Shown: in pieces, positions 1-61,553 of the stretch
How the letters are laid out: every line of letters begins with the position of its first letter
Position numbering within the stretch: the first letter of the stretch is position 1
Assembly (NCBI GenBank): GCA_905178155.1
Contig: CAJINV010000005.1
Coordinates: 7,184,989 to 7,248,988, forward strand
DNA: 64,000 nt
Reading direction: 5' to 3'
Source: Amoebophrya sp. A120
Taxonomy: Eukaryota > Protista > Dinoflagellata
Position numbers and translations under genes: made by a program
Notes under the pieces: model-generated
Databases searched by the model: none
What the model saw: only the letters and a program-made list of their open reading frames with translations
What the model was told of the DNA's origin: nothing

Positions 1-2143
1 GTATCGGATTCGAGCTGATTTAGTGGACCACCAGTTGCTGAGCTGTTGCGAAGATCATCATGTTGGACGAGTCGTGGATAGGAGTAGGACTACGACGGAG
101 GAACATCAAAGCAAGGAACAACAGCTCGCCCTTGCCGCTGCAACCTCCTCTTCCTCGTGTGAAAATGGCATGACAAGTAACGATACTAATCCTAGTGCAG
201 CTAATCGCACAACTAATTCTTCCTCTACTACCTTCCATCTCCTCGACCGTCACCCAAACAACTTCTTAACGCAAATGCGTTTCCCGAACGGGGACGAAAA
301 TTTCGTAAATCCCAAGTTCGAGTTATCGAAAAGAAAATTTCCCCCTCCCCATATCACAACGAAATATCTGATGCTGGATTTGTGTACACAAGTTGCTGGA
401 GAGCACTGTGGGCGCATATCAAGTGCGAGTAGCAGGGTTTTGGCTTTATACATAGGCACTTCTTAGCATGAAAAACGTCAGCATGACAAATAACCGCCTG
501 CACAATGCGGCGGCTGTCTGCGGAGTTGCCTTCTTGCAAGACAGACACGATTTGCGACCACAAATCAGCATAACAAATTTCCAAAAGTATACCTTTTGTT
601 CAGTATGGGGAGGGGGGATTTTTCCTTTGAATGCGAGTATTTTACCAAAGAGCTCCACGAGGAGGACAAGGCGCACCTGGTCATGCACAAAATATGGATT
701 GTAAAGATGTCTGGGTCTGGAAGATTGCAACTTGTCATGCTAAAACTGAATCATGCAGAAATCTGTGTTGCATGAGTGCCAAAAGGTGTCCACTTTCGAC
801 CAGGTTTGGAGGGAGTTTCTCATGCAGAATAGGCATGGCAGGGACCTCACAGACTCTGTCATGCTAGGTCCCGCATTCCAGACCTCACAAGTCATGGAAA
901 ACCTGCATGACAAGTTTAGACTCTTCCAGACCCAGACATTTTTGCATTTGATACAAAATGGACAACCGCGATTGGCACGGGATTAAGTCACCGCGTTGGC
1001 AAACGATTGCTATATGGAATTCGCTGTGGACGCTGGCGTTCCGGGAGGCGCAGTGCTTATGCATCGCAAAATGTGCGTAAGTACTCGTACATTCTAATTG
1101 CAATCGAGCATGACAAACCTGATTTCCTATGTAACTCACCATGACTACAAATTTAAACTGTCATGCTGACGAAATCGAAATTTGTCATGCGGTCACTTCT
1201 ACAGCCAGTACACGATGCTACTTTTGCAAAAATGCATACTGCTTCGCAAGCTGCGACAACTTTATGGGGAAAAATGTTTTCTCGCCCGCGGAAGGTGGAG
1301 GCGCGGAGGAGGGTGACCAGGACGAACTTTTTTCTCCGGTGCCAGTACGCATTGCAAATATGTCCGGGTCTAGAAGGATGCAACGTGTCTTGCTGTTGCT
1401 GGATTTGGATTCTACAAAAATCTGTATTGCATGAACAGCAACAGTAACAGAGGTGGTCCAGTTTTTGCCACGGCGAGAGGGAATTTCTCGTGCGGTATAG
1501 GCATCAGGAGGCCCTCACAAAATCTGTGATGCTAGGGCATGCATCACAAACATCAGGAGTCTAGTCATGCAAAATGTGGTGCATGACAATCCTTCCAGAC
1601 CCGGACATATTTGCACTTGATAGCCAGTTTCGGAAAACGACGAGGAACAACCTAGCAGTGGACCTAGTACGTCAACCCGTCCGCTGGATGAATTTGGCCC
1701 GGTTCTTGAGCAACAATTGCAGAGCAGCAACTGCAATAGCAATACCTCGTCGCAACAAGTCCAAGAATCTGCTGCTGGCAGTCGTTCTTCATCATCCTCA
1801 CATTTGTACGATTACGCAAAAAGCAGAACGACCAGGGACAGTGTCGTTGTCTATGACAGTGCACAACTCCCCCTCCCCCTCATTTGTATAGCATGAACGG
1901 CAACACAAGCATCAGCAAGAGTGCCTGTTTTGCATGACAAATTTACGCTGGAGTGTAGTGCTATCTGGGCTACCAGAAATTGCCATGCAAGCAGTGCCAT
2001 AAGGCAGCGACGGGATTGTTCGGGATTTTGCATGACAAAACAAAGGAGGGGGAGGCAGAGTTGTGCGCTGTCATATTGTCGTAGGTCCTGGAGGACAACT
2101 TCTGCGACCGCTCCGGGCAGCCGACCTGGAAGAATTGGATTGA
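1..2143 (+). CDS. Hypothetical protein, 3' part (5' end probably outside window), 5 introners
   Basis: Removing elements 324-633, 693-953, 1058-1238, 1346-1622, 1852-2075 plus one 5-bp DR each gives ...NPKFEYFTKELHEEDKAHLVMHKMDNRDWHGIKSPRWQTIAIWNSLWTLAFREAQC...RAADLEELD*; TGA 2141-2143. Confidence 0.8.
324..633. mobile_element. Introner family C
   Basis: TIR GAAAATTTCCCCCTCCCCATA; DR cgagt. Confidence 0.85.
693..953. mobile_element. Introner family A
   Basis: TIR ATGTCTGGGTCTGGAA; DR caaaa. Confidence 0.9.
1058..1238. mobile_element. Introner family B (diverged)
   Basis: TAT..GCAAAA TIR; DR gtgct/ctgct. Confidence 0.8.
1346..1622. mobile_element. Introner family A
   Basis: TIR; DR gccag. 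Confidence 0.9.
1852..2075. mobile_element. Introner family D
   Basis: TIR TATGACAGTGCACAACTC; DR ttgtc. Confidence 0.9.
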
Positions 2144-3593
2144 TGAGATCATAATTAGTGATTGGGAACAAGTTTGCAGCTGGTGGAAGGCGTGTTTCTG
2201 TGGTGGAAAAAGTTGGTGATGCTAGTTCGCTTTTTACACTATCCAGGAAATAGTAATGAATAAAGATAAACAAAATGTTCGAAAAAGATGCACAAGGTGG
2301 CATGGTGCTCGCTGGACCCCAGTTAAAAAATCTCGCAGAAAAATACATAGGCTTTTATATCGTGCAGCTCTCATCATTTTTAATTTTATTGCGTGAGGGG
2401 AGCTTTCGGTACAGCTACAAACAGCAGGTCATTTTATTTATTAAGCAGCAGGCCATTTAAGAGTGCCCTCTCTACAAGTCGAGATGAGGTTGTATTGCTT
2501 TATTTTCATGGCAATATTTTTAGAGCACAAGCGACGCAGTCGCAGGAGAGATGAAGACCGAACAAATTTAAAGAATACGACGACCTATTTCGAACTGTTT
2601 TATATCCAGATATACACAGCTTCTATTTTTATTTTTGCATCCGAAATTTTAGTTCGTACTTCTGACATTTAGAGAGTACGCCCACGTATATCCCACACAA
2701 TCACGATGTACAAAGCGTGGAGTTGTCAAGGCGGAAAAGGAAAAGTATCGGTCTGTATTCGCATTGTCCTATGTCATAATCTGAATGTCGATATCGGTGA
2801 CTTCTTCGCGTAATTTTCATCGGTATTATTTTATCTCGTGCTGCTCCTTCTAGGCTTCATCGGTCGTGGTGGTGGTCGTTTCAAATGTTTTTTGTCTTCG
2901 GTTTTGAGAATTGCAATCTTCGTGGTTTTCGGAAACAGAAAGAAATAGGTAACACCAAAGCGCTTTCCTGACATCGGTTTTTCGTGCAGCTCGTCCATTC
3001 AAAAATATCATTATCATCCGGAGGCGCGTATCGGTATCTGTCAGTTTGCCGTTCTATCGTACTCGTACAAGGAAGTTTATAGAAAAAGGAGATGAAGGCT
3101 TGTTTGCCACTCGGCCCTGCGCGAGGGCGACGTCGACGTCCGCTTTGCCGTTATTAACGTGATGACTTTTTCGTACACCATACAACGAACATGAAGAGGA
3201 TGTTTCCGTCATGACTTCCCCGATCATGCAGCAGTACAACTACTTCTATACTTTTATGGCGCTCGTCTGGCTTTCATATTGATACTCAACGTTTGCGGCC
3301 TTCACGAAAACGATTCCACAACATCTACTTCCGACAGGGTTTGCTAATAACTTTCTTGACTTGTCAGTCGTCCCCTCGTCTTCAAGTCCGGAAACGAAAA
3401 AGTAGACCGCCTTCTTTAATACCTGAAAACCGAAAGAAACAAAAACGAAACTTTTGACCACGACGAATTTGATTTTTTTTGAAGCATCAAACTACCGCTA
3501 CTTAAACTTAATCCTTCAGGAGCACGACATTACGACTACGAGTAAGACAAGTAAAACTCTGTGTAAGTACTTCTACAAGGTGTTGTAGTTGAC

Positions 3594-3829
3594 TATGGAG
3601 TTCTCAAATGTTACATTCTCAGCTGTTACATGAATTTGTAATGCAAGACTGGCAAAACTGAAGGGAGGAAGATTGCGCCTTTTGCATTACAAATTTGGCG
3701 CAGATTTACATGCTGTCTAGCCCTGCCGAAATTTGTGATGCGAAGCAGCTCGATCATCTGCCGGCTTAAAGTGCTTTTGCATGACAAATTCATGTAACAG
3801 TTGAGAATGTAACGTTTGAGAACGCCATA
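3594..3829. mobile_element. Introner-type MITE, singleton, apparently non-coding context
   Basis: About 50-bp TIR TATGGAGTTCTCAAATGTTACATTCTC...; DR ttgac. Confidence 0.85.
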
Positions 3830-3977
3830 TTGACACGTCTTGTTGAGTTGTCCTACCAGCAGCTCAGCATTTTCATTTCATCCAAGAAGTGCTTTCTAAT
3901 TCAAGCACTAACACTAAGCTGACAAAAATAAACTTAAACCGAAAGAACTCACCGCGAGGACATCGACCAAGGAATCG

Positions 3978-6900
3978 ATGACTCTGACTCCAAAAAATCC
4001 TGCCGCGGCACAACGTCGGCCAACAGCAGGGCGGCCGAGCACCACTTCTACGACCCGGAGCACCTCCGGATCCGGATTCCAGCTGTTCTTGCACAACAAG
4101 AACAAAAATGGCCGCCCGACCGGGAAGATGAAGATGCTCTTCGCGGCAGGTGCACTGCGCGTCGCGATGCCAGGCACTCTCCTTTGTTCCTCGCCTCTAT
4201 GGAACTGTCAGGATTGAAATTGACAAAGTTGAAAAATTTGTGATGAATAAAACCGATACCAGTTGGAAGCCCAATTTCTAAGCGGCGCATGACAAATTTA
4301 GAGGCCATCGAAATCCAGTTTGTCATGTTGTTTAGCGAAAAAAGGCATCCCTTGTCATGCTACTTTTGCAGCGGTATCCCAAGCCGGAAACAGGCTCACA
4401 ATCGGCCTTACTTGCAATCCCTGCAAGACAGTCACTTCGTGTCTTGCATTTTATGCATCACAAATTATTTCAACTTTGTCGATTTCAATCCTGACACCCC
4501 CATAGCTTCCTGGTCTCGTCCAGGCCGTGAACGTGGAGAAAATCTCCAAGACGCGGCAGGAATCACAGCCATATCCTGTGCAAAAGTATCGTACTCGCAT
4601 TGCAATCATGCATTACAAATCTTTCTCTCAAGGTAAATCAGCATTACAAATTTTATCATTACAAATTTTATCTCTCATGCTGAGGAAATTTGTAATGCAT
4701 TTATACGAGTGCGATATTTTTGCAATTCATAAGCCGCAGGGCAATGCCAATGGCAACGTCGGAAACGGCAACGCCGGCAAGACGAACGCACCGCCCGCTG
4801 CCCGGGCGGGTACTAGTTCGCAGACCACGGAGGGCTGCAGTTGCAGTGGCGGTGGCTGTATCAGACTGAAAAGAAAAGATCAAATCATCTCTCCACTACT
4901 TCTACATCACGCGGATGGACAATCAATGTGGCCCTCTACTTCAATTGTCCGAGTGATTGTGCTCTCATGCTGCCCTCTTTGCAGGAGGTGGAAAGCGAGT
5001 CGTGTGATCTGCTTCATCGTCCACGAGCCGTCGTTGGTTTGCACGGCGGTGAACAGTTTCAAAAAAAAAGGTTTTAGAAAACATTGCAACGGGCGCTCGA
5101 CGCAAAACCAAAAGACCTTATGTACCACTTCATCTTGAAAAGCGAAGAAAAATGCATGTCCACAAAAATCTCAATTGCAATGTTGAGAAAAGTTCTAATG
5201 TGCCTGATATTCATGGTTGCTCATAGAGTGCAGCTGATGTTTGCCAAAGTACTACTCTGGTGTGGTTTTTCTCCTAATTTGTCCTCATGCTGCTAGTCTC
5301 AGTTACCCCTCCAGTCTTGCTCGGGGGTACTGTTCATCTTGCATGATTCGCTGGTCCTCGTGGGGGGATGATTTGATCTCAAATTTTCTCGTTCGATATG
5401 CGGCGGATCACAGGAGAATACGGCTGAACAGCTGCGCCAGAAAAAACTGAACGCGAAAATACCAGCCGTCACTGGTCGCTTTGCTGGCGACCCGAACACA
5501 CCTCCCGTTCCAGTTGCTGCCGGCGGCCCCAAGCAACAAGACTTGCTCCCTTCAGCGGGTGTACAACGATCGTCGGGCAACCAAGGAGGAGGAGCAGGTG
5601 GAGGATCTCAAGACTTGCACTCTTCAGCGGGTGTACAACGATCGTCGGGCAACGAAGGAGGAGGAGCAGGTGGAGGAGGAGCAGGTGGAGGAGGAGATGG
5701 TGGAGGAGGAGATGGTGGAGGAGGAGATGGTGGAGGAGGAGATGGTGGAGGAGGAGATGGTGGAGGAGGAGATGGTGGAGGTGGTGGTGGAGGAGGAGGA
5801 GGAGCACCGGGTGTTTTTACACCGCGACCTGATTCGCCTGCGGGTCAAGGCAAGCTGCCGGAGCCACCTGCGCCCGTAAAAAAAAATGGTGCCGATGGTG
5901 AGGGGGATGGTGACGGTAAGGTGGACAGCGAGGACTCCAGTACTGAAGAAGAAGAGCCTCCGAAACAGGAGCATGATCATGAATCAGCAGGGCAAGAAGA
6001 AGAAGAACCTGTCCTCGGCCCTCCTTCGCAACCGTTTGGAACGGAAAACGAAGGCGTTGTTTCTCCTGGGGTCGTGCATCAGCCTCCGCAACCGGAAGCG
6101 CCCGTGGTCCACCCGGTAGCTACTGGAGATGATGCTCTACCTGTTCCTGGGATTCAGAATGAGAATCTAGGGGATGGTCTTCGTCCTCAAGCATCAAGAG
6201 GAGGTTACTACACAGAAGCCGAAAATGCGTGGAAAGAATGCAACGAGAAGCAGAAGCCCGACGAGAGTTGCGAGATCATGATCTGGATTCGGCCCGAAAA
6301 AGAAGTCGCCCAAGCGCTTGGTACGTGCATGGCAGAGGAAGAAAGAGCATGGCTCAACAAACAAAACGAGTGGATACGGTTCGGAAAGGTCCGTCTGGAT
6401 CAGTGGGACAAAGAAAGCTGGTGGAATTTCAAAAAGACCGAGGGAAAGTTTCTTCCAGCGTACGTGGAAGCGAACGCCGATGCATATGAAGCGCAGGGTT
6501 TAATTAATCGCAAATCTTCCCTCGCTGACACTGCTGACAAGCTCTCTGCGTGGTGGGAGAAAGTACTACATATGCAGTACCAGGAGGATCAGAATGTTGC
6601 GACGCCAGCGTTTCACATGCTACGTCGACGTGGAGAGGGGAAAGTAGAAGACGGGGAAAAAAATGCGGTGCTCCTCAACCAGCCCTTTTTGGAGTTTAAC
6701 AATGCGGAGGAGATAAAGTCGACGGGACGCTCGCGGAAGAAACCAAAAAAAGGTAGGAGTGTGAATCACCTCCCCACCCCTTTGAATCACCTCCCCACGC
6801 ATCACCCCCCCACCCGGATCACCTACCCACCTCCCCCGCATCACCTCGTGACGCGCCCGCATCACCACCGTAGCGGCCGGAGGTGATGCAGAAGCAGAGC

Positions 6901-7753
6901 CGGCTGCGGCCTAGGGTTTAGGGTTCGGGGTTTAGGGTCGTCGAGGCCAGCCGGCGCGACGGCGCCGTCGCGCCGGCTGGCCTCGACGCTTCTCTTTTTC
7001 TCGTGTTCCTTCCCCCTTCTCCGCCCTTGTGTGCCACCATTTTGGCTTCCATTGCTTCTTGGTCCTTTTGCTGTGCGCCCTTTGCCCCCGTCGTGTTTCC
7101 GTGCCTTGACTCCTTGCGGCATTGCCTTGCGTGCCCCGTGAGTCGCTCCATGTTCGCCACCTTAGGGCCGCCGCACCCATCTGGTGGCCGCGTGCGTAGG
7201 CTGATCTGTCGCGCAGGATGAGGACTCATGTGCGTTGTGGCAGATGCCTGGCTTCATCGCCGCGAGGTAGATGGCACAGAAGCCAAGCAGCATGCATCCA
7301 GACGTAGTCACGTTCTGCTCGACAATCACGGAGCAGTGCAACGCGGTGGGGAAGTGTTGGACGACTGGGAGGTGGGGAGGTGGGGAAGTGCCTCCCCACC
7401 TCCCCACCACTGGGGAGGTACCTCCCCACACGTGGGGAGGCACCTCCCCAGGGTGGGGAGGTGGGGAGGTGATGCGTGGGGAGGTGATTCACACCATAAC
7501 CCCAAAAACAAGCGGTGGAGAAATGCGGAAGAGGAAAAGCCTATTTAGAATCCTCACGCAGCAGAGAGAGAGGACAAGCAAAATGTTCTGGACCACGAGG
7601 GAGGGTGTGATGGAGGACGAGGAACGAATAAAACGCTTCAATACATGTATCCTGCTTGCAAGATCTAGTGCGTGCGCGCTCGTTGGCCTGCGAGTGCAAA
7701 ATTATCTAATTGGTCGCTGCCTTATTTCGTCCGTAGTAGCTGTAGCTCTTTGA
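3978..7753 (+). CDS. Gly-rich (GGGGD repeat) hypothetical protein, possibly secreted; 3-4 introners
   Basis: ATG 3978; removing 4198-4504, 4572-4731, 4859-5398 joins to ORF 5543-6886. Removing 6754-7498 plus 5 nt continues in frame to TGA 7753 (alternative stop 6886). Hydrophobic stretch MKMLFAAGALRVAMPGTLLC near the N terminus. Confidence 0.6.
4198..4504. mobile_element. Introner family F
   Basis: TIR TATGG..TGTCAGGATTGAAAT; DR gcctc/gcttc. Confidence 0.9.
4572..4731. mobile_element. Introner family B
   Basis: TIR TGCAAAAGTATCGTACTCG; DR agcca/agccg. Confidence 0.9.
4859..5398. mobile_element. Degenerate long introner
   Basis: Imperfect TIR AGATCAAATCATC; DR lost; removal restores frame. 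Confidence 0.6.
5689..5800 (+). repeat. 15-bp coding tandem repeat (GGTGGAGGAGGAGAT, GGGGD)
   Basis: Direct reading of tandem copies. Confidence 0.9.
6754..7498. mobile_element. TIR element with CACCTCCCCAC subterminal arrays
   Basis: GTGTGAATCACCTCCCCAC ... GTGGGGAGGTGATTCACAC(C)ATA; no clear DR. Confidence 0.65.
6912..6937 (+). repeat. Short interstitial telomere-like (TTTAGGG) tract
   Basis: TAGGGTTTAGGGTTCGGGGTTTAGGG. Confidence 0.55.
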
Positions 7754-7951
7754 TGTCTTTGAAGAGTCTATTATATAGACTCTTCAAAGACACTGATATT
7801 ATAATATAATAATAGTGGCAAAGGTTTTTTCACTCCTAAGGGAGCTCCTAAGGAAGCTTCCTTACGGAAGTTGTCCCTTAAGAGGGCTTGCTAAGGAAAA
7901 GCCTTAAGCAAAATTATCTTAAGGCGTCTGCGCTTAAGAAGGTACGCCTTA

Positions 7952-8051
7952 NNNNNNNNNNNNNNNNNNNNNNNNNNNNNNNNNNNNNNNNNNNNNNNNN
8001 NNNNNNNNNNNNNNNNNNNNNNNNNNNNNNNNNNNNNNNNNNNNNNNNNNN
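7952..8051. other. Assembly gap (100 N)
   Basis: Run of N. Confidence 1.
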
Positions 8052-11000
8052 GCTATTGCTTGCTATTAGTGCCGTCGCCTTCCGGGCTGGTTGCGAGTTT
8101 GGCGACTCGCAACCAACCAAGACCAAAGCCCAAAGCACCACCACCCAAGCACCGGGCTTACCACCACTACAGTAATCGACTTTGCGAGCCCAGCGGGCCC
8201 CCGAAGGGCCCGCGCCAAGGGCTCGTATCATATATATAAGAACATCGGTCTATGCATATAGATACAGCACACGACTTGAATTATGGCCTTTGTACAAACA
8301 TGGCCCCGCCCCGTCTGCCGGCGGCCTACTAGCCCAACAGATGCAGCGTAGCTACTACCCCGAGGCCAGGCAGCTAAAAGGCAATGATGTCGCGCACCAT
8401 GGCGGCCTCGGCCTCCCCTGGCCACCTGATCGCGCCAACTTTGCCAGTGCCGCTTGCTTTAAAAATTATGCCGCAGTCGGCTGCGCCACGCACAGCTTGT
8501 ATCTAGGTCTGAATAACCCGCATCTCCAACGCCAGAAAGCAAAACTCCGGTTTGACTGCGTGTGGCGGGTCAAAGAAAAATGAAAATAAAACATTTTGGA
8601 TCGGGGCGATGGAGCTGGTGATTGCACACCACCCAAACCCTAAGCCGCATCCGTCGGAAATGCCTGCCGATTTGCACCCGGAACGCTTCCGCATTCTGTA
8701 CAGCTGGAATGCCAAGCGGGAGTACGAATTGCAGCAAATAATTTGTCGCGGTCAATGGAAAGATGAAGGTCGAGCTATTTCTTGCATTGCTTGCGGCAAC
8801 ATTGCATGTCGGAGAACCTAAAATCTTTGTTGCATAATAAGTAAGTACGAATATTAGCTAAGAGAATTATTAAATGTGGCTTTGATTGTCATGAGGAAGC
8901 AGCGTCGCGGTCTGTCTACTACGCTGGAGTTCGCGACAAAAAGCTGTGTAGTCGTACACTTGAGCTAGCGACGCAAATTCGTGTCAGTATGTATGCTTTA
9001 TTGGAAGTCGCATCTACTTTAAGAACTTCATCATGCAAAATAATTGGCATCACAAAACTCACGCAAAATGAAAATGCCAGACCCAGACAAAGGCATGTCC
9101 GTAGTGGATAAGATGAAGACTCTCGACTGCTTTCACAATCCGGTCACAGACGACGAGGGCAGAAAGGTCTACCACCACTCTGACATCTATGGGCAATCCG
9201 TACGGATGCCGAAAAAGATTTATCGCGCAGCTACTAGTACAGTAGCAATACACTTGATAATGATCTTTACTTGCATGTCTGGTTTCTTGATGGTTTTTTA
9301 GGACTAGGGGCTGTTTTACCAGGCGCAGGCTTGCAGTTTGCAGATAGTTATTTTTTCGACCGACATGTTTGGAAGATCGAGGTAGAGCTACCGTGCTTCC
9401 GCAGTAAATACATGTTGTGAGTATGCGACAGAAGCTATGTTCTTAAGCACATCCTGCTCACCCAAGAATCGGTCTTCAGGTGTATAGAAACGCACCTTCC
9501 GTGCGCGCAGCCATCAGCTTCGCCGGAATGGTCAACGTTTCAGTTTCAGTTCGAGCTCCCTACTAGGCCTTGAAGGCCTATCGCCTAGAAGGCGAAGGCT
9601 CTGCTAAAAGGCGAAGGCTTCGCTTTCTAGTACAAAAGCGGAGCTGTTCCAATTCCGAAGGTTGGAATTGGAGTATCTTTATCTTATCTGTTCCTGTTGT
9701 ACCAGCATGCATGCTGCGCGAATATTTTTCAAAGTGACAAGTCACAATCGATCACGGATGGGGAGTGAAGAATCCAAACACTGAACCGTTTTGAAGATAT
9801 CTCGGGTTGTGACATTTCAAGAGGTAGCGAAGGGATCTCCAGAGAAGAGAGTTGTTGCGGATATCTGTTTTTTGGTGTACCAAGCACACACACACACACA
9901 CTACACCGGTATTTCCTTGTTTTTCGATTTCTTCTTTTTGTTTTTGTTTTTCACCACCGGCACCGACCACGCCCACGCCGGGCCGTGCGACCCAGATACC
10001 GGGGGCCTGTAAAACCCTTCGCATGACAAGTTTGGAAGATCCATACGGCAACCGAAAAAGATTTATCGGGCAGCTAGTGCAAGTACTCAACTTCCCACTT
10101 CGTCATGGCATCATGACCCCTGAGTTCTTCATCTTTTAGAACTGCGGGACCCACCAGCCATGCAGCGTGCAGACCGTTTTTCAAGCTCGAGTGGAAGCAT
10201 CATGATAGAATATTCTCTGTTCCACCCTTTACGATGTCGGCTCTGGCAGGGGCCGGGGTCCTCTAAATGAGAATATAATAAATCTGAGCCAGACCCAAGT
10301 CCGAAAAACAAAAAACCTAGCCTCGTACTTAAAGCGTCCGCGCTTAAAAAAGGCAACAGCCGCGCCCTCATATATGGTGATAGGTTGACTGCCCACTTTA
10401 AAAATGGGCGCTCAATCTTCCTCGGACTCGAGGAGGGACCAGCGCGCAGCAGTCCGCCAAAGCGCGCACTGCCAGCCATCATCAGGAGGAGTCCTGTCAT
10501 TGATTTTTTTTAGTTTATCGCACTTTTTAGTCTGGGATACAAATAAGACGAAACCTGCTCTCGGCCGCAGGCACAAACCTGCTCCGGCCTGCCACCTGCA
10601 ACTTCGCCGGGCTTGGTCACTTTTCAGCTCGTCGCGGCCGTGCAAGGTAGAGAAACTGCGCACCAGCCCGTGGGCTCTTCTATATAGGAAAAGCTGGTCT
10701 TCACCATCGCAATGGGCTGCTGATCCTGGTGCCCAATATAGAACAACGCGCGCGAATGAGGTGTGGCATTCTGGTTCTGTGCAGATCCGAACGTTTATGT
10801 TTGCAACTGAGTATCTCTGTAAGCATGTTGTACCGATATTTTTCAACGTGATGAGCCGTGTTGGGAGAGAAAGCGGGCCCGGCAGCGGATGTCGATGGAA
10901 ACTGGGTATCTTCATTTGCGGCGACGAGGTGAGTACCAAAATAGATTAAGCTTGTTGGTGACATTGCGGTGGAAAAGCGTGCAGTGGTGTTTATCAAAAA

Positions 11001-11227
11001 ATCAATTCGTTATATACTAGTCGCAAGCTACCCTTGACTCACTCCACACTAGAAACCAAAAGCAACACACAACAACGACCAGGCAGGCACCCCGCCGCAC
11101 CCTCACGCACTCCCCACAGCCGCACAGAAAGGCGGCGGTCCCAGTGGTGCAGGCACAGCCGGGCCTCTAATGTTCCGGCCCTCGCCTCAAGCGCCCCCGC
11201 CTTTCTGAACCTTCAGCGGAAATGCCA

Positions 11228-11545
11228 TAGCCTCTAGCGGCCTAGCCTCTAGCGGCCTAGCCTCTAGCGGCCTAGCCTCTAGCGGCCTAGCCTCTAGCGG
11301 CCTAGCCTCTAGCGGCCTAGCCCCTAGCGGCCTAGCCCCTAGCGGCCTAGCCTCTAGCGGCCTAGCCTCTAACGGCCTAGCCTCTAGCGGCCTAGCCTCT
11401 AGCGGCCTAGCCCCACCCTAGCGGCCTAGCCCCCACCCTAGCGGCCTAGCCCCTAGCGGCCTAGCCCCTAGCGGCCTAGCCCCTAGCGGCCTAGCCCCAA
11501 GCGGCCTAGCCCCTAGGGGCCTACCCTCTAGCGGCCTAACCAGAG
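11228..11545. repeat. 15-bp minisatellite (TAGCCTCTAGCGGCC)n
   Basis: About 20 tandem copies. Confidence 0.95.
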
Positions 11546-11664
11546 GCTAGGTTAGCCTCCAGAAGCCTCTAGCGGCCTGCCTAGCCACCAGCGGGCTGCC
11601 TAGCCTCCGGCGGCCTAGCCCCCAGCGGGCTGCCTTAGGCCCCAGCGGCTTAGCCCCCTGCGGC

Positions 11665-14235: not shown

Positions 14236-14325
14236 GAGTTGAGGCTGGAGGTCGCGGGAGTTGTTGGCTGAGGTTTCCGGAGGTGTGCGTTAAAATTTTT
14301 TGTTCTATACTTATCATTGCGCATT

Positions 14326-16627: not shown

Positions 16628-17642
16628 AACGCGTTTGAAGAACATCATATCATTATCATATCAAAAGAATTCGCTACGACACACAGAGGTGAGGCTGCAT
16701 CATGCGGCGTCGCGTGAAAATCAGTGTGAGCAAAAATCACTTTCCAGGTTGTTGCTCACTGCTTCTGCTCCTGTTTGCAGAAGACGGGCAGAGGGACGAG
16801 GTTTTCCACATCTACATGTGAAAGCTGGTAGAACTACCAAAAATATAATCAGGTGCCGATCCACACTCATGTCCGTGTTGAACGACATGCACTTGTTATG
16901 CCGCCGTTGAACAACAGAGCGTGAAATCAAAGCCCGCAGATGCAGAAATAAAAAGGACAAAATCCACCCAGATCAAAAAAATAAAGATGAAGTTTCGTTC
17001 TCATTGTCGGTGAGAGCATGATCCGCTTGGACGCCGTAGATCTTCGATAATGTCGAGCAATAGAAGATTTCTGATAGATCATCCGGGCACTCTACACTTT
17101 CGGACGATATCTGCTCGTTATTTTGGTCGCAAAAAATCAAATCAGATCCAACTCTTTGAAGAAGATTCGTCCCTGTGGTCAAAAAAAAGATCATAAATAA
17201 CGACATGTGTGTTGGAAACTCTGTTGCAACTATTTCTACAAGACAGAAGAATGCTCAAAATTTCGCATGATTGTTCTTCGTGGCGGCACACAGATCATTT
17301 GGATTGGTATTGCAAAGAAATCAATTGCTCTTGATGCAGTTTGCATTTGATCGCAACTTGTCAGGACATCGTGGTAAAATAAAGAAGTTATTCCTCATCT
17401 TCAAAAAGAAGAAGAAGAACTCGGCGAACAGGCAATTTTATTCAGCACTGCGACCTGAAGTAGTTATGCTAAAAAAGCTAGAACAATGCATTTCTCCTTC
17501 ATAGAACAAGTGACACAACAGAAGTGAGCCGGTTACTGCGCTTGAACAAAAAAAGCAGGAGCGTTTCTCCAGTCCTCCTCGTCAAATAGAAATACAATAT
17601 TCAAAGCACCCATTTGACAACCAGCGATCTATAGATTTGAAA

Positions 17643-38055: not shown

Positions 38056-38319
38056 TATCAAATGCAAAAATGTCTGGGCCTGGAAGGATGCAAGGTCTGT
38101 CATGCACATTTTGCAATGAGTCCTGATGTCTGTGATGCATGCCCTAGCATCACAGATTTCAAAAGGGCTTTCTGATGCCTATACCGCATGAGAAATGCCC
38201 TCTCGTAATGGAAAAAACTGGACTTCTTCTGCTGTTAATGCAATACATATTTTTGTAGAATGCAGCTGCAGCATCACAAGTTCGCATCCTTCCAGACCCA
38301 GACATATTTGCATTTGATA
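38056..38319. mobile_element. Family A element
   Basis: TIR; DR ggcga/ggtga. Confidence 0.9.
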
Positions 38320-49900: not shown

Positions 49901-51173
49901 TTTGATTGCAGAGATTGATCTCATCCACATGGTACTTCCTATTGGCGCGGCTCTCTGGTAAGAACTCTATCACAGCATGTCATCTGACACACACCCCTTC
50001 TACATCAACGACCACAGGTGGACGCAGTCGCACGGCTACGGGCACGACAGACGGTATGGGAGTGTCAGGATCGAAAGTGTCAAAGTTGAAAGAATCTGTA
50101 ATGCAAAAAACCGATACCAGCTGGAGCCCAGTTTGCAAGCGGCGCATGACGAATTTTGGCAGCATGGAAATCCAATCTGTCGCGCTGTTTGAGCAGAGAC
50201 GATTGCTTTTGTCGTGCTATTTTAGCAGCTCTATGTATAATCTCACACCCCAAACAGGCTTGTAATCGGCCTCAGTTGCCTGCTCTGCAAGACAAGCGCT
50301 TTGCGTCTAGCATTTTATGCATCACAAACTAGTTCAACTTTGACGATTTCAATCCTGACACTCCCATAGACGGCGACCGGCGGGGAAATCCGGGCGGGGT
50401 CGGTGCGGGAGGAGCTCCACCGATGCGGCAGCAGAACGGTACCGGTGGTAGTCACCACAACGTCAACGTGGGAGGTGTAGCTCCTTCTCGAGGTGGCATG
50501 CTGAACAACCCCAATCCCATGGGAGCCTCCGCTCCAGGCGTGCCGAGCCGGTCGGGACCTTACGGAACCAACAGTATGGGGAAAGCCGCTGCGCTATGGA
50601 TTGCAAATATGTCTGGGTCTGGAAGAGTGGAACTTGTGATGCTACCTCTGGACTCTACATAAAATCTGTATTGCATGAACAGCAAAAGAGGTGTGTTTTG
50701 TACTACGCGGAGAGGACATTTCTAATGCGGCTTGAGCATCAGAGAGCACTCGCAAAATCTCTGATGCTAGGGCATGCATCACAGACCTCACGGGTCATGC
50801 AAAATCTGCATGACAAACTCCTGCATTCTTCCAGACCCAGACATTTTTGCAATGCATATGCGCCCGGTGTCGGTGGTGGCCCGCCGAGTCACGGAGGTGG
50901 ATCTTCCCTGTTTGCCGGTCCTAGTATGAAACTGCACAACTCCCCCTCGTCCCCCTCATTTGTCATGCAAAGTGCCTAGTTTACGCCTTGGCTCTTGGCA
51001 CTGTTTGCATGACAAGTTCTCGCAGCCCCAATAGCACTACACTCCTGTCTAAATTTGTCATGCAGGAAAACCTGTATTCTTGCTGACGCTTGTATTGCTG
51101 TTCATGCAATACAAGTGAGGGGGAGGGGGAGTTGTGCACTTTCATACCTAGCTCTTATCCCGCAGAAACATGA
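40952..51173 (+). CDS. KH-domain RNA-binding protein with G/P/Q/H-rich and RD/RE-rich low-complexity regions
   Basis: Removing 27 introners and GT-AG introns 44381-44572 and 49681-49975 gives one ORF; KH motif FEVPQKYLGLLIGRNGDAIRRY...TVHITGNDLANIISLKADM (GxxG loop); TGA 51171-51173; start uncertain. Confidence 0.85.
40996..41247. mobile_element. Introner family A
   Basis: TIR; DR cacga. Confidence 0.92.
41361..41505. mobile_element. Introner family B
   Basis: TIR; DR ggtag. Confidence 0.92.
41543..41809. mobile_element. Introner family A
   Basis: TIR; DR acagc. Confidence 0.9.
41880..42103. mobile_element. Introner family G
   Basis: TIR; DR tcatg. Confidence 0.9.
42136..42349. mobile_element. 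Introner family I
   Basis: TIR; DR gcatg. Confidence 0.9.
42402..42711. mobile_element. Introner family C
   Basis: TIR; DR tcggg. Confidence 0.92.
42758..42915. mobile_element. Introner family B
   Basis: TIR; DR tccac. Confidence 0.92.
43076..43224. mobile_element. Introner family B
   Basis: TIR; DR taact/tagct. Confidence 0.9.
43712..44295. mobile_element. Introner family A with nested insert
   Basis: DR ccctt; insert 43782-44092 flanked by catgactcctga. Confidence 0.9.
43782..44092. mobile_element. Secondary insertion inside an introner
   Basis: 12-bp duplication; end GGGACGCCCTGCCCTTAG shared with 52033-52050. Confidence 0.75.
44381..44572 (+). other. Canonical GT-AG intron
   Basis: G|GTAAGT...TACTTCAG|TG keeps frame. 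Confidence 0.75.
44717..44918. mobile_element. Introner family H
   Basis: TIR TATCCACAGTAA; DR acctc offset by 3 nt. Confidence 0.8.
45060..45314. mobile_element. Introner family A
   Basis: TIR; DR cgcga. Confidence 0.9.
45574..45733. mobile_element. Introner family B
   Basis: TIR; DR ggacc. Confidence 0.9.
45804..46113. mobile_element. Introner family C
   Basis: TIR; DR tcagc. Confidence 0.92.
46307..46568. mobile_element. Introner family A
   Basis: TIR; DR cgagg. Confidence 0.92.
46593..46847. mobile_element. Introner, singleton
   Basis: TIR TGCTCA.G.GTTACAATCTCAA.CGTTGCAA; DR aaccg. Confidence 0.9.
46935..47199. mobile_element. Introner family A
   Basis: DR cctgc; splits KH LGL|LIGRNG. 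Confidence 0.92.
47296..47555. mobile_element. Introner family A
   Basis: TIR; DR aaaat. Confidence 0.92.
47605..47765. mobile_element. Introner family B
   Basis: TIR; DR cctca. Confidence 0.88.
47827..48108. mobile_element. Introner family E
   Basis: TIR; DR acgac. Confidence 0.92.
48284..48547. mobile_element. Introner family A
   Basis: TIR; DR aacgc. Confidence 0.92.
48616..48936. mobile_element. Introner family C
   Basis: TIR; DR ctgaa/ttgaa. Confidence 0.92.
48998..49263. mobile_element. Introner family A
   Basis: TIR; DR agacc. Confidence 0.9.
49309..49457. mobile_element. Introner family B
   Basis: TIR; DR ggcag. Confidence 0.92.
49522..49636. mobile_element. Introner family H-like (shortest, 115 bp)
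   Basis: TIR; DR cttgg. Confidence 0.88.
49681..49975 (+). other. Canonical GT-AG intron
   Basis: A|GTAAAA...TCACAG|CA keeps frame to the downstream exons. Confidence 0.6.
50055..50368. mobile_element. Introner family F
   Basis: TIR; DR gacgg. Confidence 0.92.
50595..50858. mobile_element. Introner family A
   Basis: TIR; DR tgcgc. Confidence 0.92.
50925..51146. mobile_element. Introner family D
   Basis: TIR; DR cctag. Confidence 0.92.
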
Positions 51174-51977
51174 TCGAGCTGTTTCTTTGTTCCAACGGAG
51201 TGCCACATTTGACAAAGTTCTTATAGAATGTGGATATAAATCTAGAATTCAAATAAAATACGCGCAACCAACACACCGCTCTTTGCAGGTACTTTAGTAG
51301 ATTTCAGAGGCATGACATTAGTGAGGTTTCGTAGGTGTACAAGCTGGTGAAGATTTACTGCTGCACAGCACCACGACCGCATCTCTTTTGCATTCATGTG
51401 TCATTGGTATGAGTAAAAAAGAGGATAAACTACATCCGGTGCTGCTACTTTATTTAAAATTCTGAGGTAATTGCTAGCACTCCTGTACTAGTTGACAGGC
51501 AACATGAATGCGTTGGCGTTGCGTCTTGTACACCAAATGTGGGACGTTGGGTATATGTATCCAAGAAAAATGAATCGGCGTTGGTAGTTCACGACGAGCA
51601 GTATAAGTATTCGCATGCTACGTTAGTACTCTCTCTACTTTGTCACACTTTGCATTTCCGAGGAATAGGAAAACAAGTATTCACGTAGTCAACATAAAGA
51701 GCATTTGCTCAGAAGTCTGTGGTGCCTCACAGATACTACACGGGAAAAGAAAACTTTACCGGATAAAGTTGTACTGGCGGTCTACCGTCATCACAACCTC
51801 TTGGCAGCATGCTTTTCTAGCACTAAAATGCACTCATGCTTTTCTGCAACACAAGTATGACTTCTGCTTTATTTTTTTACGACCTACCAGCGCCCATTTT
51901 TTTCTTGGATAGCCTTTATTTTTTTCCATATGATACCCCAGCATCATCCACCGCAGTAGTATCCAAAAATCAACTGG

Positions 51978-52148
51978 TATCCACAGGAACATTCTCATCC
52001 CCTTCAGTAGTTTTTGCAATGACACACACACAGGGACGCCCTGCCCTTAGTTTACCAACATGACAAATGCAGGCTTTGCTTCTTGTGCCCGGTGTTTTGC
52101 ATGAAAAGAAATTGCAATTGGATGGGGATGAGGATTTTATTGTGGATA
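51978..52148. mobile_element. Family H-like element with a short nested insert
   Basis: TIR TATCCACA..CTCATCCCC; DR actgg/cctgg. Confidence 0.8.
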
Positions 52149-53735
52149 CCTGGGACCACTCGTGCAGCAGAACTAGTAGGGTTGCTCAAGAGCAGAGTCT
52201 ATGTCCATTCTGGAGGCACGTGCGATAAGTATGCTCTCGCATTGCAAGAACTTCTACATCGACCGTTTTTGAAGCTATTTAGAAAACTTCACTTTATATT
52301 TTGCGTTGCAGTGGGGCATGCATTTATAGGACTTTCCATATTAGCCTTCCGCTAAAAACGTCACCCGTTGGCCGAGGTCGTTCGCGCAGGCACACCGACG
52401 TCGTTCGCGCAGGCACAGCGACAACCCTATCGGGAACAGCGCCGCAAGAAAAACAGCCGGCGCAGCGTCAGCGTCGTCACCACCACCACCTCTTCCTCCT
52501 CCACCACTTCTTTTTCTTCGTCCAATCCGGCGACCGACGGTTGCGACACGGATGACGCACGGTTTGGTGCCCCCCGCGGCGTTGCGACTTGCTCACAACC
52601 GTCGGTCGCCGGATTGGAGGAAGAAAAAGAGGTGGCGGTGACCTCAGTGTCGTCACAACCAACGCCGATGCCGCCGTTGCAACCGTCGCCGGGGCGGGGG
52701 CGTTTCCGGATTGATTGGAGGAAAAGATGATGGCGGTGATGATGAACAGTACTAGTGATGGGCAATTGCTGGCGCTGTACTGGCTGTTTTCTTGCAGCGC
52801 CGCTCCCGACACGATTGTGACTGTGCCTGCGCGATCGACGTCGGCCAACGGGTGCCGTTTTGAGCGGAAAGGGAAAGCGAATATTATAGGAAGTCCCACA
52901 AATACATATCAAAGAACAAACTTCTTGCACTACATCAATCTAGAACTGCCTATGGCATTGCGCCAGTAACAAATTCGCCAAGGGCCGCCCTTTCAAGAAA
53001 TTATTGCATTTCAATTGCAACGCGCGAATGCAAGCCTTCTGAGCAGTATAGCTCGCGCAAGAATTAGTGTGGCTCTGCCCTTGAATACATGCGGAATCTC
53101 GTGCAAGAGCTCCTCTGCCGTCAGAGTGGGATCGATTGAGCTGTTGCAGCTTGTGCAGTTACGTAAAGCAACTTTTGGGGCACCGGACCTAAGGACCACC
53201 CGGCCGGGTGGTCCGTAAGTCCGGTGCGGACCTAAGGATTAGGTTTGTGACCCTCCTCTAAGTATGCTCTCGCTTTGCAAGAACTTCCACACCAACAGTT
53301 TGAGTTTGTAAGAAAATGAGTCCCAGTCTGAGCGTGCATAACGACCAACCGGCGCTGCACCAGGAGGTTATCCAATCTGAAATGAAAATCGTGTTGTAGA
53401 CGATATTTCTACATAGCAAGTGGCCTTTATCAATCATCGAAATGGAAATTGTGATGCATACACAAGAACACTCGATCACCGGTGAGCTGTCCCCTGATCT
53501 TGACCATTTTTCTAGTCCTACTGTTTTGGAAAAGGTTTTTTATAAAGATGGACCTGGCAACACCAACATCATGAAGATGCGAGAACAGGACGTGGAGATG
53601 AACGACAACTACCAGAAACAATGTGGTCGAAAAGAAGACGCAGTATCAAGATGGTAAGTAGGATGACTACACACACAGCTTCCTTATTTCAGTTTTATGA
53701 CGGTGCACAACTACTCCTTCTCCCCCCCCCATGTG
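52120..53735. repeat. Segmental duplication copy 1 (copy 2 at 61845-62387), with a 1-kb insert
   Basis: Colinear high similarity outside 52259-53258. Confidence 0.85.
52325..52895. repeat. Long imperfect foldback palindrome
   Basis: e.g. TCCAATCCGGCGACCGACGGTTG / CAACCGTCGGTCGCCGGATTGGA; CCCGTTGGCCGA / TCGGCCAACGGG. Confidence 0.8.
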
Positions 53736-54706
53736 GATTCGGATCAAGGCTGCAGGACTTAAAGTATGTAGATGTAACAAAAAGAAGATAAAGAGGATGG
53801 ACAAATATTAAGGTGGTTCTACTGACTCTGACAATGATGCATCAGGTGGCTATACTAAGTAGCTTCATGATCATCTGCACGGAGATCATGGACGCGGAGA
53901 TATTGAACAAGGTGCGCGCACTGAGATTTGTCGTCGTCGTTGTGCCGAGCTTTCTTGTCCTGCAAACAATGTCAATGCTACAAACTGAATAGCAAGCACT
54001 CTATTGCTTTTGCATCACAAATCAGTACTGAAAAATGAAGGGGACCACGAGGAGGGGGAGTAGTTGTGCAACGTGATAAGGCCGATAACCACGGATTTGC
54101 TTTTCCGCAACGACACCGAGGTACGAACAGTGAAAAGCCGCGAGTCCTCTCGAAGCAGCAGCTCGAGTAGTTTGATTTATTTGTCATGCCAAAATGCAAT
54201 AGAAATTGAAAGAGATTGACAACTGCAATTTTGCCTACACCGAGCACGCAAGTGAGGAAATTTTCCGTCGCTATCGCAATTGCTTGTAGTAGTTTTTGCA
54301 TGACACAACAAGGAGCAATAACTTCGAACACTCGCTTCATTTGGCCACAATTATACGGGAAGATATCCGATGCAAATTTTATGCCTGGTTGGTGAGAGAA
54401 CGTGTTGGCTCCTGCTCTGTGAATTATCATTCATCGATCTACTAGACTTATCCTTGTTGGCGTTCAAGATAGGAAGAATTTCGTGAACTAGAGTTCTAAG
54501 AAGTTCAAGTTGCTGCAAATTACACTATGGAACAATGACAACAAGAAAATATTGTCCATTCTACTCTACATCTACGAACGTACAACAACACTCGTCTCTG
54601 CGCCGACCACGTGTACAAATTTGCGATGCATAGCTCATGAAGATGTCGGAAACGCCATAGCGCGGCTGCTGAACACCAAGGAAAACGTATCACGCAGAAT
54701 CAACGA

Positions 54707-55014
54707 TATGGATGTGTCAGAATTGAAATCGACAAAGTTGAAATAATTTGTGATGCATAAAATCTATACCAGTTGGACCCACAGTTTCCAATCGGCGCAT
54801 GACAAATTTTCCTGGCCTCTGAAGCAAGTCTGTCATGCTGTTTAGGGCAAGGTGGCTGCTCCCTGTCATGCTAGTCAGCAGCCCAATTCTTGACCCTTGC
54901 CAGCACTAGAATCTGCCTCCCTTGCGCCTTCAGCAATAGAGTCAGTCTTTGTGTCGCATTTTATGCATGAAAAATCATTTCAACTTTGTCGATTTCAACT
55001 CTGACACCTCCATA
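54707..55014. mobile_element. Family F element
   Basis: TIR; DR aacga. Confidence 0.9.
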
Positions 55015-55378: not shown

Positions 55379-55640
55379 TATCAAATGCAAAAATGTCTGG
55401 GTCTGGAAGGATGCGACTTGTGATGCTGAATTTGGATTCTACAAAAATCTGTATTGCATGAACAGCAAAAGAGGTCCTGTTTTTGCCACGGCGAGGGGGC
55501 ATTTCTCATGCGGTATAGGCATCAGGAAGCCCTCACAAAATCTGTGATGCTGGAGCATGCGTCACAGACTTCAGGAGTCATGCAAAGTGGCCATGACAAA
55601 CCTCGCATCCTTCCAGACCCAGACACTTTTACATTTGATA
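55379..55640. mobile_element. Family A element, apparently non-coding context
   Basis: TIR; DR tgtgt. Confidence 0.9.
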
Positions 55641-58600: not shown

Positions 58601-59340
58601 TTCATCTTCTTCTTCTCCATCGTCGCATCCTCTTCCAGTCCGTCGGTCGTCCTTGCTTTTTTAAATCCCCTCTGCACTTTGGCGTTAGGTTTTGTACATT
58701 CACGTTCACGCTCAGAATCCGGAAGAATAATTCCAATTTCAGTTTACGGGTGGGTGGAAGAAATTCATGGAGGCGATGGTGTAGGGTCGTCGGCTGTACT
58801 GCAGAATCGGGTCGGGTTGGAAATCGGTACAATGATGCATGTCGGAAGAGTTGCGTTATCGGTTCGTAAAAAACAAATCTTCCTTTATTTCCCCCGCGTA
58901 CTCTCGATCCGGTTCGTCGAAACAAAACTTCAACTTCCACACTTACATCTTCGTTTTCGTTTGCATCGTGTTCTCGCCATCGTGTACTTCAGATATGTCG
59001 TCAGTGCTTGCCGTACCATCGCACTTTAAATGTTTACCTGGATCGCGTTTTAACTGGGATATAACTAGAACTAGCTCGAGGACTAGTCGCAAACGATGAA
59101 AGAACTGCAAGAACAGTTTTCATCGCCCGCGGAAGGGTTTCGAAGACGAAAATTGTGTCGCGCGGCTGGTTAGGCTTTCGCGCTGGTTAGGTTTTCGCGC
59201 ACGCATTTGGTTACCAATATCGCCCTCCGGGCGCGACCTTCATATCTCCAACCGTCGACGAGCAGCGTGATGAACATGTTGGCCGCAGGAGCAGCAATTC
59301 CTGCACCGTTGGCCGCATGCAAATGAGTATTGACTCATTG

Positions 59341-60860
59341 TTAGCAATTCTCATGCAGCAAATCCTTGCACAGCTCTTTCGTCAATACGGTGCCGCTATC
59401 AAATGTAAAAGTGTCCGGGTCTGGAAGAATGCAACTTGTCATGCTAAATCTGAAGCATGCAAAAATCTGTGTTGCATGATTACCAAAAGTCGTCCAGTTT
59501 TGACCAAGTCGGGAGGGAGTTTCTCATGCAGGATAGGCACGAGAGAGATCGCGCAGAATCTGTTATGCTAGGTCCTGCATTCCAGACCTCGGGGGTCATG
59601 GAAAAGCTGCATGACAAGTCGCGCACTCTTCCAGACCCAGACCCAGACCCAGACACTACTGCGCGAGCACCCACAGGCTCCCAGGTGCCTAGCGCTTTGG
59701 CCAGCGTTGCACCTCGATAGAGCCTGCGGGACCCCGTGGGCAGAAGTTCATCGCACCCAATTTGCATGTTGCGCAAGTGATAGTATAAGTAGTAGTACTC
59801 AGTACCACCGGTGGACGCCATAGCATGCTTTTAGTCTCTCTCTACATATTATATCCACGTAGTTCTCTTCTCTTTTCTTTCTTCAAAATGTTAAAGTCGT
59901 TCTCTTCCCTGTGCTGTACCATGGTCTTGCTTCCAGACAAAACACCAGACATTTTTGCATTTGATAGCCCCTGCTGTTTCTGTCCTGAAGTCTGTCGTTA
60001 GTTCCGAAAGAAGAAGTTGCTCCTCCTGCGCCCCCACTTGAAGATGTCAGCGGCCCTTTGTTCTGCTGCAAAATCTCGGCTTCTATTCTCCGGAACAGCG
60101 GCAGGATATTCGCGTTCAGCTCGGCAATCGCGGAAGAATCCAAATTGTCCCGCATGGAGTAAAACAGCCGCTTTTTCAAATACACAATCTATGGAAGCGT
60201 CAGGATTGAAATCGTCACAGTTGAAATAGCTTGCGATGCATAAAATGCAACCCACAAAAAGCCTGTCTTGCAGAGTAGCCAAGGAAGGCAGATTGTAAGC
60301 CTGTTGAGGGGTAGAAATAGAGCTGCTAAAGTAGCAAGACAGAAGGCGTCTTCCTTACCCAAACACCATTACAAATTGGGTTTCGGCTCTTCCCAAATTT
60401 GTCATGCGCCAGTTGAAAACTAGGCACCAACTGGTATCCGTTTTATGCATCAGAAATTATTTCAACTTTGTCGATTTCGATCCTGACACTACCATACAAT
60501 CTCCGCTTGGCGTAACGTCGCGGAGGAAGACACAACTGCTGCTTGGTTGTTTATTGCGACAGAAGATGCAGTAGTGGTCCCGTCTTGATTGGCTCCAGTT
60601 GTTGTTGTGCTGCTGGAGCTGGAAGTCGAAGAAGTTCTGGCTTCTTTAGTCGTGTCAGCAGAACCCGCTGTTCCTGCAGTAGAAGACCCACTCCCTTGCT
60701 CACCGGACTGTTTGTCTTTGACCGCTCCTCCCGTATTCCCACCGCTTGATCCCGAAGCCACCACATCCGCCACCTTGATTTCGTCCAGAAACTGTAGCTG
60801 CCACCCCAGATACCGCAACACGAACATCTCGTAGTTCTGCAACAAGCAAATCGGGTTCCG
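59341..60860 (-). CDS. Hypothetical protein, 3' part, with a cyclin-box-like motif; 5' end unresolved
   Basis: Minus-strand frame restored across 60190-60496 and 59397-59966: PICLLQNYEMFVLRYLGWQLQF...QAEIVYLKKRLFYSMRDNL...RGTVLTKELCKDLLHENC*; ExxVLxxLxWxL resembles the end of a cyclin N-domain (inference). Confidence 0.6.
59397..59966. mobile_element. Expanded introner family A
   Basis: DR gccgc/gcccc; about 300-bp insert in the right TIR after (CCAGAC)3. Confidence 0.82.
60190..60496. mobile_element. Introner family F
   Basis: DR caatc; in a minus-strand gene. Confidence 0.92.
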
Positions 60861-61175
60861 TATTGTGAGGAAAAATCTTCCCTCCCCATATCGAACAGGA
60901 AATTTGTAATGCTGATTTGTGGCCACAAATCCGCTGTGTCTTGCGTACAAGGCAAACGGCACCCATGTGGCGTATTGTACAGCGAGTCTGTCATGCGCTT
61001 TCGCCTATATCAGACGTGTTTCTCATGCTAAGCTGCTAGCCGGATGCGTACCCAAATGGGCTTAGTATATCTTGGCAATCTCTTGCTGCAATACACAGCT
61101 CATTTGTGTACAGAAATCCAGCAACACAAATTGTCTATATCGAATGTGGACTGGGGACTTTTTTTTTAACCAATA
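60861..61175. mobile_element. Family C element
   Basis: TIR; poor DR. Confidence 0.75.
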
Positions 61176-61227
61176 TCTCCAACCGTCGATGAGCAGCGTG
61201 ATGAACATGTTGGCCGCAGGTGGAACA

Positions 61228-61553
61228 TATTGTGAGGAAAAATCCCCCCTCCCCATATCGAAAGCGAAATTTGTGATGCTGTATTTGAGTACACAAATCG
61301 CATTTGTCTTGCTGGAGAGGACTGCAGACCCATATCTACCCTGAGTAGAGAGGCTTTGACTTAGGCGCTTAGCATGAGAAGCGTCCGTGATGTTGGCTTA
61401 ACAGCATGACAAACTGCCTCCATAATGGGACGGAAGCTGCTGCCCTTGTCTTCTTGCAACACAGACGTGATTTGTGACCTCAAATCAGCAACACAAATCT
61501 GCGAAAGCCTACCTCTTCAATTATATGGGGAGGGGGTATTTTTCCTTGCGATA
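61228..61553. mobile_element. Family C element
   Basis: TIR; DR gaaca. Confidence 0.88.

Follow-up and report, generated by a model that had tools for sequence, protein, structure and literature searches.

Genes and elements of the window

The stretch analyzed here, referred to as the window, comprises 64,000 nucleotides (nt) of contig CAJINV010000005.1 (positions 7,184,989 to 7,248,988) of the dinoflagellate Amoebophrya sp. A120. Its genes are interrupted by numerous elements that begin with TAT, end with ATA, and carry terminal inverted repeats (TIRs). They correspond to the introner elements that Farhat et al. 2021 (PMC7789003) described in that very genome, so the system was already known. 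The intron consists of one nucleotide, TA(T/C)...ATA, and four nucleotides, and the cut is fixed rather than variable inside the direct repeat. Introns that follow this 1/4 rule are called rule introns below. The genes concerned are the following:

324 to 2079, plus strand: unnamed gene ending near 2140, with five rule introns (324-633, 693-953, 1058-1238, 1346-1622, 1852-2075); the frame is open after their removal, and three are empty sites in the sister-lineage sequence L001
17643 to 20132, plus strand: GPN3 GTPase gene (PF03029; match to protein P0001), with five elements (17709-17858, 17917-18096, 18348-18597, 19013-19336, 19650-19917), three of them empty sites in L001
21146 to 30147, plus strand: transcript of a coiled-coil gene, with 16 elements and two GT-AG introns (22523-22924, 25343-25543), matched by an RNA-type contig of run X4
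31033 to 33475, plus strand: gene C (match to annotated protein P0111, 253 residues), with seven elements
36377 to 56400, plus strand: KH-domain gene (P0110, 1,232 residues), with 45 rule introns and four GT-AG introns; the rule rebuilds P0110

Catalogue and anatomy of the elements

A scan for TAT...ATA ends, inverted repeats, and 5-nt direct repeats (cut-off score at least 26) returned 67 candidates in the window, a few of them inner pairs or unrelated repeats, and 0 and 0 in two shuffled controls. After these had been curated by means of terminal profiles and the annotated proteins, the catalogue comprised 90 elements, which make up 40% of the window. Exact TAT...ATA ends are present in 76 of the 90. 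The direct repeat matches at four or more of its five positions in 70 elements and is perfect in 53; it is lost in old copies. BLAST clustering of 82 elements yielded seven multi-copy clusters (22, 13, 4, 4, 3, 3, and 3 members) and 30 singletons, and by visual impression nine or more terminal types can be told apart. A young copy illustrates the anatomy:

47296 to 47555, strand not assigned: representative young member of the largest family (22 copies, found in both orientations), with perfect ends and a 5-nt duplication

Open frames are interrupted by 78 of the 90 elements (GPN3, 5; coiled-coil gene, 16; gene C, 7; KH gene, 45; gene at 1-2140, 5). For 73 of these, an annotated protein or an RNA contig served as the check, and for five the open frame alone. 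Among the other 12, seven are unverified and five are nested in other introns (36798-37059, 22545-22760, 51978-52148, 54707-55014, 55379-55640). The element at 22545-22760 sits within a GT-AG intron, and the insertion site of that at 36798 coincides with the 3′ end of an intron of greater age.

GT/GC-AG borders are possible within the true slide range of the junction in 5/78 introns, and at the rule register in 3/78; six ordinary GT-AG introns share the element-bearing genes. The rule introns at 24561, 46307, and 54688 read GT-AG by chance, and among the introns with inverted repeats that have been published as canonical, some may likewise be rule introns of this kind.

An earlier note on this DNA, made from the sequence alone, had described about 78 TIR elements and had stated that GT-AG does not generally fit and that deletion of an element plus 5 nt restores the frame in more than 60 exonic cases. 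The counts above bear out all three, and such deletion also restores the NLDPA and LLIGRNG motifs. Its description of gene interruptions as TAT...ATA elements with a 5-bp flanking repeat holds for most of them, but leaves aside the six GT-AG introns and a repeat that proved dispensable, since no more than two of five repeat positions match in 16 of the 78 open-frame introns.

Identity with the published introner elements

Three exons of the window are 100% identical to Amoebophrya sp. A120 proteins. In the portions of the cited papers that were covered, to which all statements on the literature below refer, the A120 introners are described as having inverted repeats that start with TAT, followed by seven variable bases and then As, with direct repeats of 3-5 nt, 29,850 copies, and RNA-seq support for removal by a mechanism left open (PMC7789003). 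The position counts in the 78 introns agree with this pattern of TAT, seven variable nucleotides, and As. The window elements share all five defining features: the genome, the TAT inverted repeat, the 3-5 nt direct repeat, removal outside GT-AG borders, and repeated, diverse families. The earlier note had likened them to Amoebophrya introners and called the machinery unresolved; the kind was right, but the elements are not merely similar, being the same elements in the same genome.

The published account differs from the present one in the splice sites, which are variable or undefined relative to the hairpin there ("variable" in the legend of Fig. 3) and fixed at 1/4 here. The fixed code was not found in the literature searched, which included PMC12130899, PMC11282704, PMC12005148, and bioRxiv 10.1101/2020.10.14.339549 and few subscription papers; Amoebophrya is not mentioned in the covered part of the bioRxiv paper, and the figures of PMC7789003 (Fig. 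3, S19-S25) may contain part of the pattern. What is new relative to PMC7789003 is a fixed 1/4 cut that is independent of the repeat and valid for old singleton introns too, together with the presence or absence of elements in a sister lineage and a decaying sub-terminal motif. Taken jointly, the identity of the elements as A120 introners and the fixed register are held with high confidence.

A fixed cut at one nucleotide before and four after the paired ends

Mapping of three annotated proteins to the window gave 59 junctions. Most can slide within the direct repeat. Old introns without a repeat cannot, and their zero-slide junctions therefore expose the register of the cut. The features that carry this evidence are:

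36420 to 36603, plus strand: old intron without a direct repeat, the type example of N-TAT...ATA-NNNN, with a zero-slide junction; a piece of the X4 contig ends at 36419
37760 to 39315, plus strand: three more zero-slide, repeat-less introns (37760-38014, 38361-38707, 38985-39315), which fit the 1/4 register alone
36634 to 37063, plus strand: old intron whose 3′ end holds a young insertion, 36798-37059; junctions mapped by protein
51151 to 51154, plus strand: predicted 4-nt exon between two rule introns
54360 to 54362, plus strand: 3-nt exon between two rule introns

All six zero-slide junctions read one nucleotide, TA(T/C)...ATA, and four nucleotides, and fit no register other than 1/4. TA at +2/+3 together with ATA at -7 to -5 is expected by chance about once in 1,000 per junction. 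From the 59, a set of 21 junctions with little slide or imperfect repeats was selected; the 1/4 register fits 20 of them, and any other register at most 13. The lone misfit is explained by the exon at 51151-51154, predicted from length arithmetic rather than from RNA: 227 and 785 nt add up to the annotated gap of 1,012 nt. Residue 1146 of P0110, at this exon, is probably mis-annotated (Pro for Ser). At 54360-54362 no single intron reproduces P0110, whereas a 3-nt exon under the rule does.

Removal of the 45 introns of the KH gene under the 1/4 rule gave 1,232 residues, 1,231 of them equal to P0110. Registers 3, 2, 1, and 0 gave 9, 15, 17, and 21 differences, respectively, and register 5 ran into a stop at residue 92. 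In gene C, 253/253 residues equal P0111 for registers 1-4, with errors at 0 and 5, and the GPN3 product equals P0001 at 430/430 residues after element removal. Five informative ends among the eight listed pieces of the X4 contig (ends at 21920, 25828, and 36419; starts at 19338 and 29410) bracket the register at 4. The earlier note had proposed one removal rule for all families, of element plus 5 nt; a single rule does serve them all, but it places the cuts 1 nt ahead of and 4 nt past the paired ends, and the repeat is optional. The direct repeat was accordingly rejected as a splicing signal, as introns matching at two or fewer of five positions obey the rule.

The published alternative, in which the cut truly varies within the repeat and annotation or the chosen element ends give the false look of a fixed register, agrees with the Fig. 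3 legend (PMC7789003), with the slidability of most junctions, and with the use of annotation to locate old-intron ends. It appears improbable in view of the zero-slide junctions, of an annotation pipeline that aligned transcripts without any such rule, and of the agreement of the RNA contig ends and L001. In two elements shared with L001, changes fall in the repeat copies that the rule makes intronic, and at one site in the L001 GPN3 gene a conserved Phe is kept only at register 4 or above. In Table S4 of PMC7789003, 9/9 of the top sites of A120 are N-T and 9/9 of those of strain A25 are TT, as expected if both strains read N-U-A. Several points weigh against the fixed register: its support comes mostly from annotated proteins, which also served to locate the ends of old introns; the direct RNA evidence consists of five contig-piece ends, all from a single run that was classed as RNA by guess; and a catalogue built from TAT-like ends may inflate the invariance of the terminal bases.

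Probable removal from RNA rather than from DNA

The polarity of the cut bears on where removal takes place. The two large families lie in both orientations relative to the transcript (12/10 and 6/7), yet no mirror register was seen at the informative junctions. The 1/4 asymmetry thus follows transcription and not the element, which argues for RNA splicing and against excision from DNA. On the other side, all verified genes lie on the plus strand, and at 59397, in a minus-strand fragment, a residue of protein P0113 agrees by eye with the repeat copy on the downstream side, which would break the rule if the fragment were functional; P0113 is a paralog, so the fragment gives no polarity read-out.

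The coiled-coil gene, after removal of its 16 elements (with 5 nt each) and two GT-AG introns, yields a predicted transcript of 4,530 nt with a 1,332-codon open frame. This transcript matches a contig of run X4, classed as RNA by a software guess, at 9/9 anchors, and the contig lacks all 18 introns. The earlier note had named retention of the elements in transcripts as the observation that would count against its rule, and this contig points the other way. The raw RNA runs X9 and X10 placed four and zero reads on the window, too few to bear on junctions.

Internal eliminated sequences (IES) of ciliates are transposon-derived, have TA-containing ends, are precisely removed, and leave the DNA. 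The earlier note had allowed for an analogous excision, and a transposase could remove the window elements from DNA at some life stage, transcripts then being made from the cleaned copy. The transposon anatomy and the fact that the DNA examined is not stage-specific are compatible with this, but it is very unlikely. The window elements stay in the DNA: genomic-type X1 contigs, from the life stage sampled, span seven elements intact, without differences, and at single-copy depth (X1 may be the source sample and is then not independent), and L001 also carries shared elements. Repeat-less introns are moreover removed exactly, and the cut is polarized by transcription. The transposase-like remover proposed in the same note found no support in the window analysis.

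Recent insertion and a probable mobility motif

L001 is a sister-lineage sequence from one metagenome scan, about 93% identical to the window. Six elements are unique to the window and seven to L001, and in 13/13 cases the gap equals the element plus 5 nt, which identifies the direct repeat as a target-site duplication and the insertions as recent. The elements are short and non-coding, with TIRs, a fixed-length target-site duplication, and insertion polymorphism, all features of miniature inverted-repeat transposable elements (MITEs). The sister GPN3 gene (L001 3001-6100) carries seven elements as compared with five in the window, only two of them shared, at about 96% protein identity, a comparison that suggests very fast intron turnover. 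About 14 kb of the window (approximately 2800-16800), including an N gap and a GC-rich satellite (approximately 11200-14250), are absent from L001 at 2130-2230, where the first gene is followed directly by the GPN3 region.

A 10-nt sub-terminal motif occurs 12.1 times per kb in 53 young elements and 2.3 times per kb in 11 old ones, and it is not found in five GT-AG introns, 9.4 kb of exon-rich sequence, or 8.1 kb of intergenic sequence. It is common to all families and points inward from both halves (e.g., 47296-47555). Its absence from 8/11 old introns led to its rejection as a splicing signal; it is likely a mobility signal and a candidate transposase site. No gene for a transposase or remover was found in the window, where 0/19 spare open reading frames match Pfam. 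No transposase was found in A120 by Farhat et al. (PMC7789003), and A120 elements with a putative transposase region were reported later (PMC12130899).

Conserved bases and pairing of the ends

Across the 78 introns, T at +2 and A at +3 are invariant, while their pairing partners vary in seven. A is present at -7 in 77/78, with a partner that varies in seven and no surrounding branch consensus. Positions +5 and -8 are C or G, mismatched in 25/78, and the exon flanks, +1, and the last four intron bases are free of constraint, giving the consensus N-TAT-S...S-ATA-N4. The six GT-AG introns all start with GTA. In 14 old introns, pairing is stronger between the two ends of the same intron (mean -11.4 kcal/mol) than between swapped ends (p about 1e-5 by permutation), the own-end duplex ranking first in eight and second in three.

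A proposed hairpin-guided spliceosome and its alternatives

The reading preferred here, with a probability of roughly 55%, is that a modified spliceosome guided by a predicted terminal hairpin removes the elements. The elements are short, non-coding, transposon-like inserts that duplicate 5 bp on landing and that persist in the DNA but are missing from messenger RNA (mRNA). A terminal stem of 15-20 bp would hold both ends together, a form of intron definition that would permit exons of 3-4 nt. The 5′ site would be read as N-U-A, with the same +2/+3 bases as GT-AG introns and +1 freed, and the 3′ site would be set by distance, possibly from the A at -7 acting as a branch point. For mobility, a transposase acting in trans would bind the sub-terminal motif, which decays with intron age, whereas the ends are retained. 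Since 1 + 4 equals the 5-nt length of the duplication, any new insertion, in either orientation, would be removed without a scar.

The invariant +2 U and +3 A, which GT-AG introns share, point to a modified spliceosome, as do the strand polarity, a near-complete spliceosome, and precedents elsewhere. Nearly all spliceosome proteins are kept in A120, with no U1 found (PMC7789003); fixed short branch-to-end distances occur in Yarrowia and Trichomonas (PMC2483917); and non-GT/AG introns of tunicates are handled by the spliceosome (PMC13326754). The non-U2 activity proposed in the earlier note is right in that the ends are not GT-AG; these shared bases do not bear out the non-U2 part.

A number of observations weigh against a hairpin-guided spliceosome. 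The GT/GC...AG ends of U2 spliceosomal introns are not found at the rule borders in general: G occupies +1 in just 26/78, a terminal AG is absent, and the last four bases are free. There is no pyrimidine tract or branch consensus, T being present at -9 in 33/78 only; in one intron a G at -7 faces a C at +4; and an A at -7 would lie buried in the stem. Three of the 14 own-end duplexes ranked poorly, and whole-intron folding showed little terminal pairing in five of the ten old introns shown. The authors of the Euglena work favor non-spliceosomal proteins for analogous introns (PMC12501133).

A dedicated endonuclease, possibly a domesticated transposase or an enzyme resembling tRNA endonuclease, that measures from the hairpin under the same 1/4 rule, followed by an RNA ligase that joins the exons, is a possible though less probable explanation. 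It would account for cuts that need no particular base, a ruler-like geometry, orientation independence, exons of 3-4 nt, retained own-end pairing, and missing branch and pyrimidine signals, and the analogous introns of Euglena leave as circles and follow a stem-offset code (PMC12501133, PMC11282704). A symmetric stem reader, however, predicts neither that +2 U/+3 A are invariant and their partners variable nor a common GTA start in the GT-AG introns. No candidate enzyme is present among the 19 spare frames searched against Pfam, and no transposase was found in A120 (PMC7789003), although elements with a putative one were reported later (PMC12130899).

Self-splicing of the RNA ends, or joining through an unrecognized guide RNA or ribozyme, would suit the structured ends and the lack of a detected U1 in A120 (PMC7789003). 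It is nonetheless quite unlikely, as the interiors differ among families, work in both orientations, and decay, and Rfam returned 0 matches in the window.

Whichever machine acts, the modified spliceosome or an enzyme pair, it is rather probable that the elements represent a third splicing code, N-UA(U)...AUA-N4. It would be read by a hairpin-measuring machine that needs no base at either cut, with a geometry matched to the 5-bp duplication, so that insertions are erased even 3 nt apart; the machine would be either a spliceosome that works without U1, G+1, or AG or a novel mRNA pathway of endonuclease and ligase that has converged on that of Euglena.

Relation to other intron systems

With the A120 introners as published, the window elements share the genome, the TAT start, inverted and direct repeats, RNA-supported removal, and many families (PMC7789003). 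The nonconventional introns of euglenids resemble them in fixed stem offsets, a MITE-like origin, and slidable repeats that hide the code, and their N6 variant also pairs in the +4/-7 register (PMC12501133, PMC11282704). The euglenid signature, N3-CDG...CHG-N5-6 followed by a purine, differs from N1-TAT...ATA-N4 and is not found in the window introns, the lineages are unrelated, and euglenid introns are excised as circles; the window system works alike without being a member. Introners of Polarella/Symbiodinium and Aureococcus share a TIR origin, a target-site duplication, and in some cases both orientations, but they take G(T/C/A) and AG sites from either the element or the duplication and splice in several frames, whereas the window elements need neither kind of site and use one frame (bioRxiv 10.1101/2020.10.14.339549; PMC12130899). 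Fritillaria tunicates also have non-canonical introns in mass, attributed to a modified U2 spliceosome; these differ in having defined alternative dinucleotides, and no hairpin ruler was found in the text covered (PMC13326754; PMC11282704).

In the published view, the splice sites of these elements, which number in the tens of thousands, lack a signature. A single fixed code in cis makes removal testable, since it names the bases to mutate and predicts the lariat branch or circle junction. It also allows re-annotation where standard tools fail, including exons of 3-4 nt, explains the tolerance of up to several insertions per kb of coding sequence, and adds to Euglena another, independent example in which the ends of transposons have turned into a splicing code.

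Further features of the window

The KH_1 domain at residues 87-145 of the KH gene (Pfam) spans old repeat-less introns. For a second KH-like stretch, with IGRNG, Pfam reported no separate stretch. One further group of elements lies downstream:

59397 to 61553, minus strand: four elements, putative introns, in a fragment resembling the leucine-rich repeat (LRR) protein P0113 (paralog) by sequence likeness

This LRR fragment (minus strand, 59000-61200) is 94% like the paralog P0113 over 118 residues, and its upstream part is replaced by a repeat of about 50 nt that is also present near 56560, 58180, and 59240. By eye, the segment at 6760-7500 is bounded by long inverted ends, C-rich/G-rich in composition, and contains a telomere-like repeat near 6915; an open frame of 504 codons, for which Pfam gave no match, ends there. 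The segments at approximately 51850-53730 and 61800-62390 are also alike by eye and appear to be duplicated inside the window.

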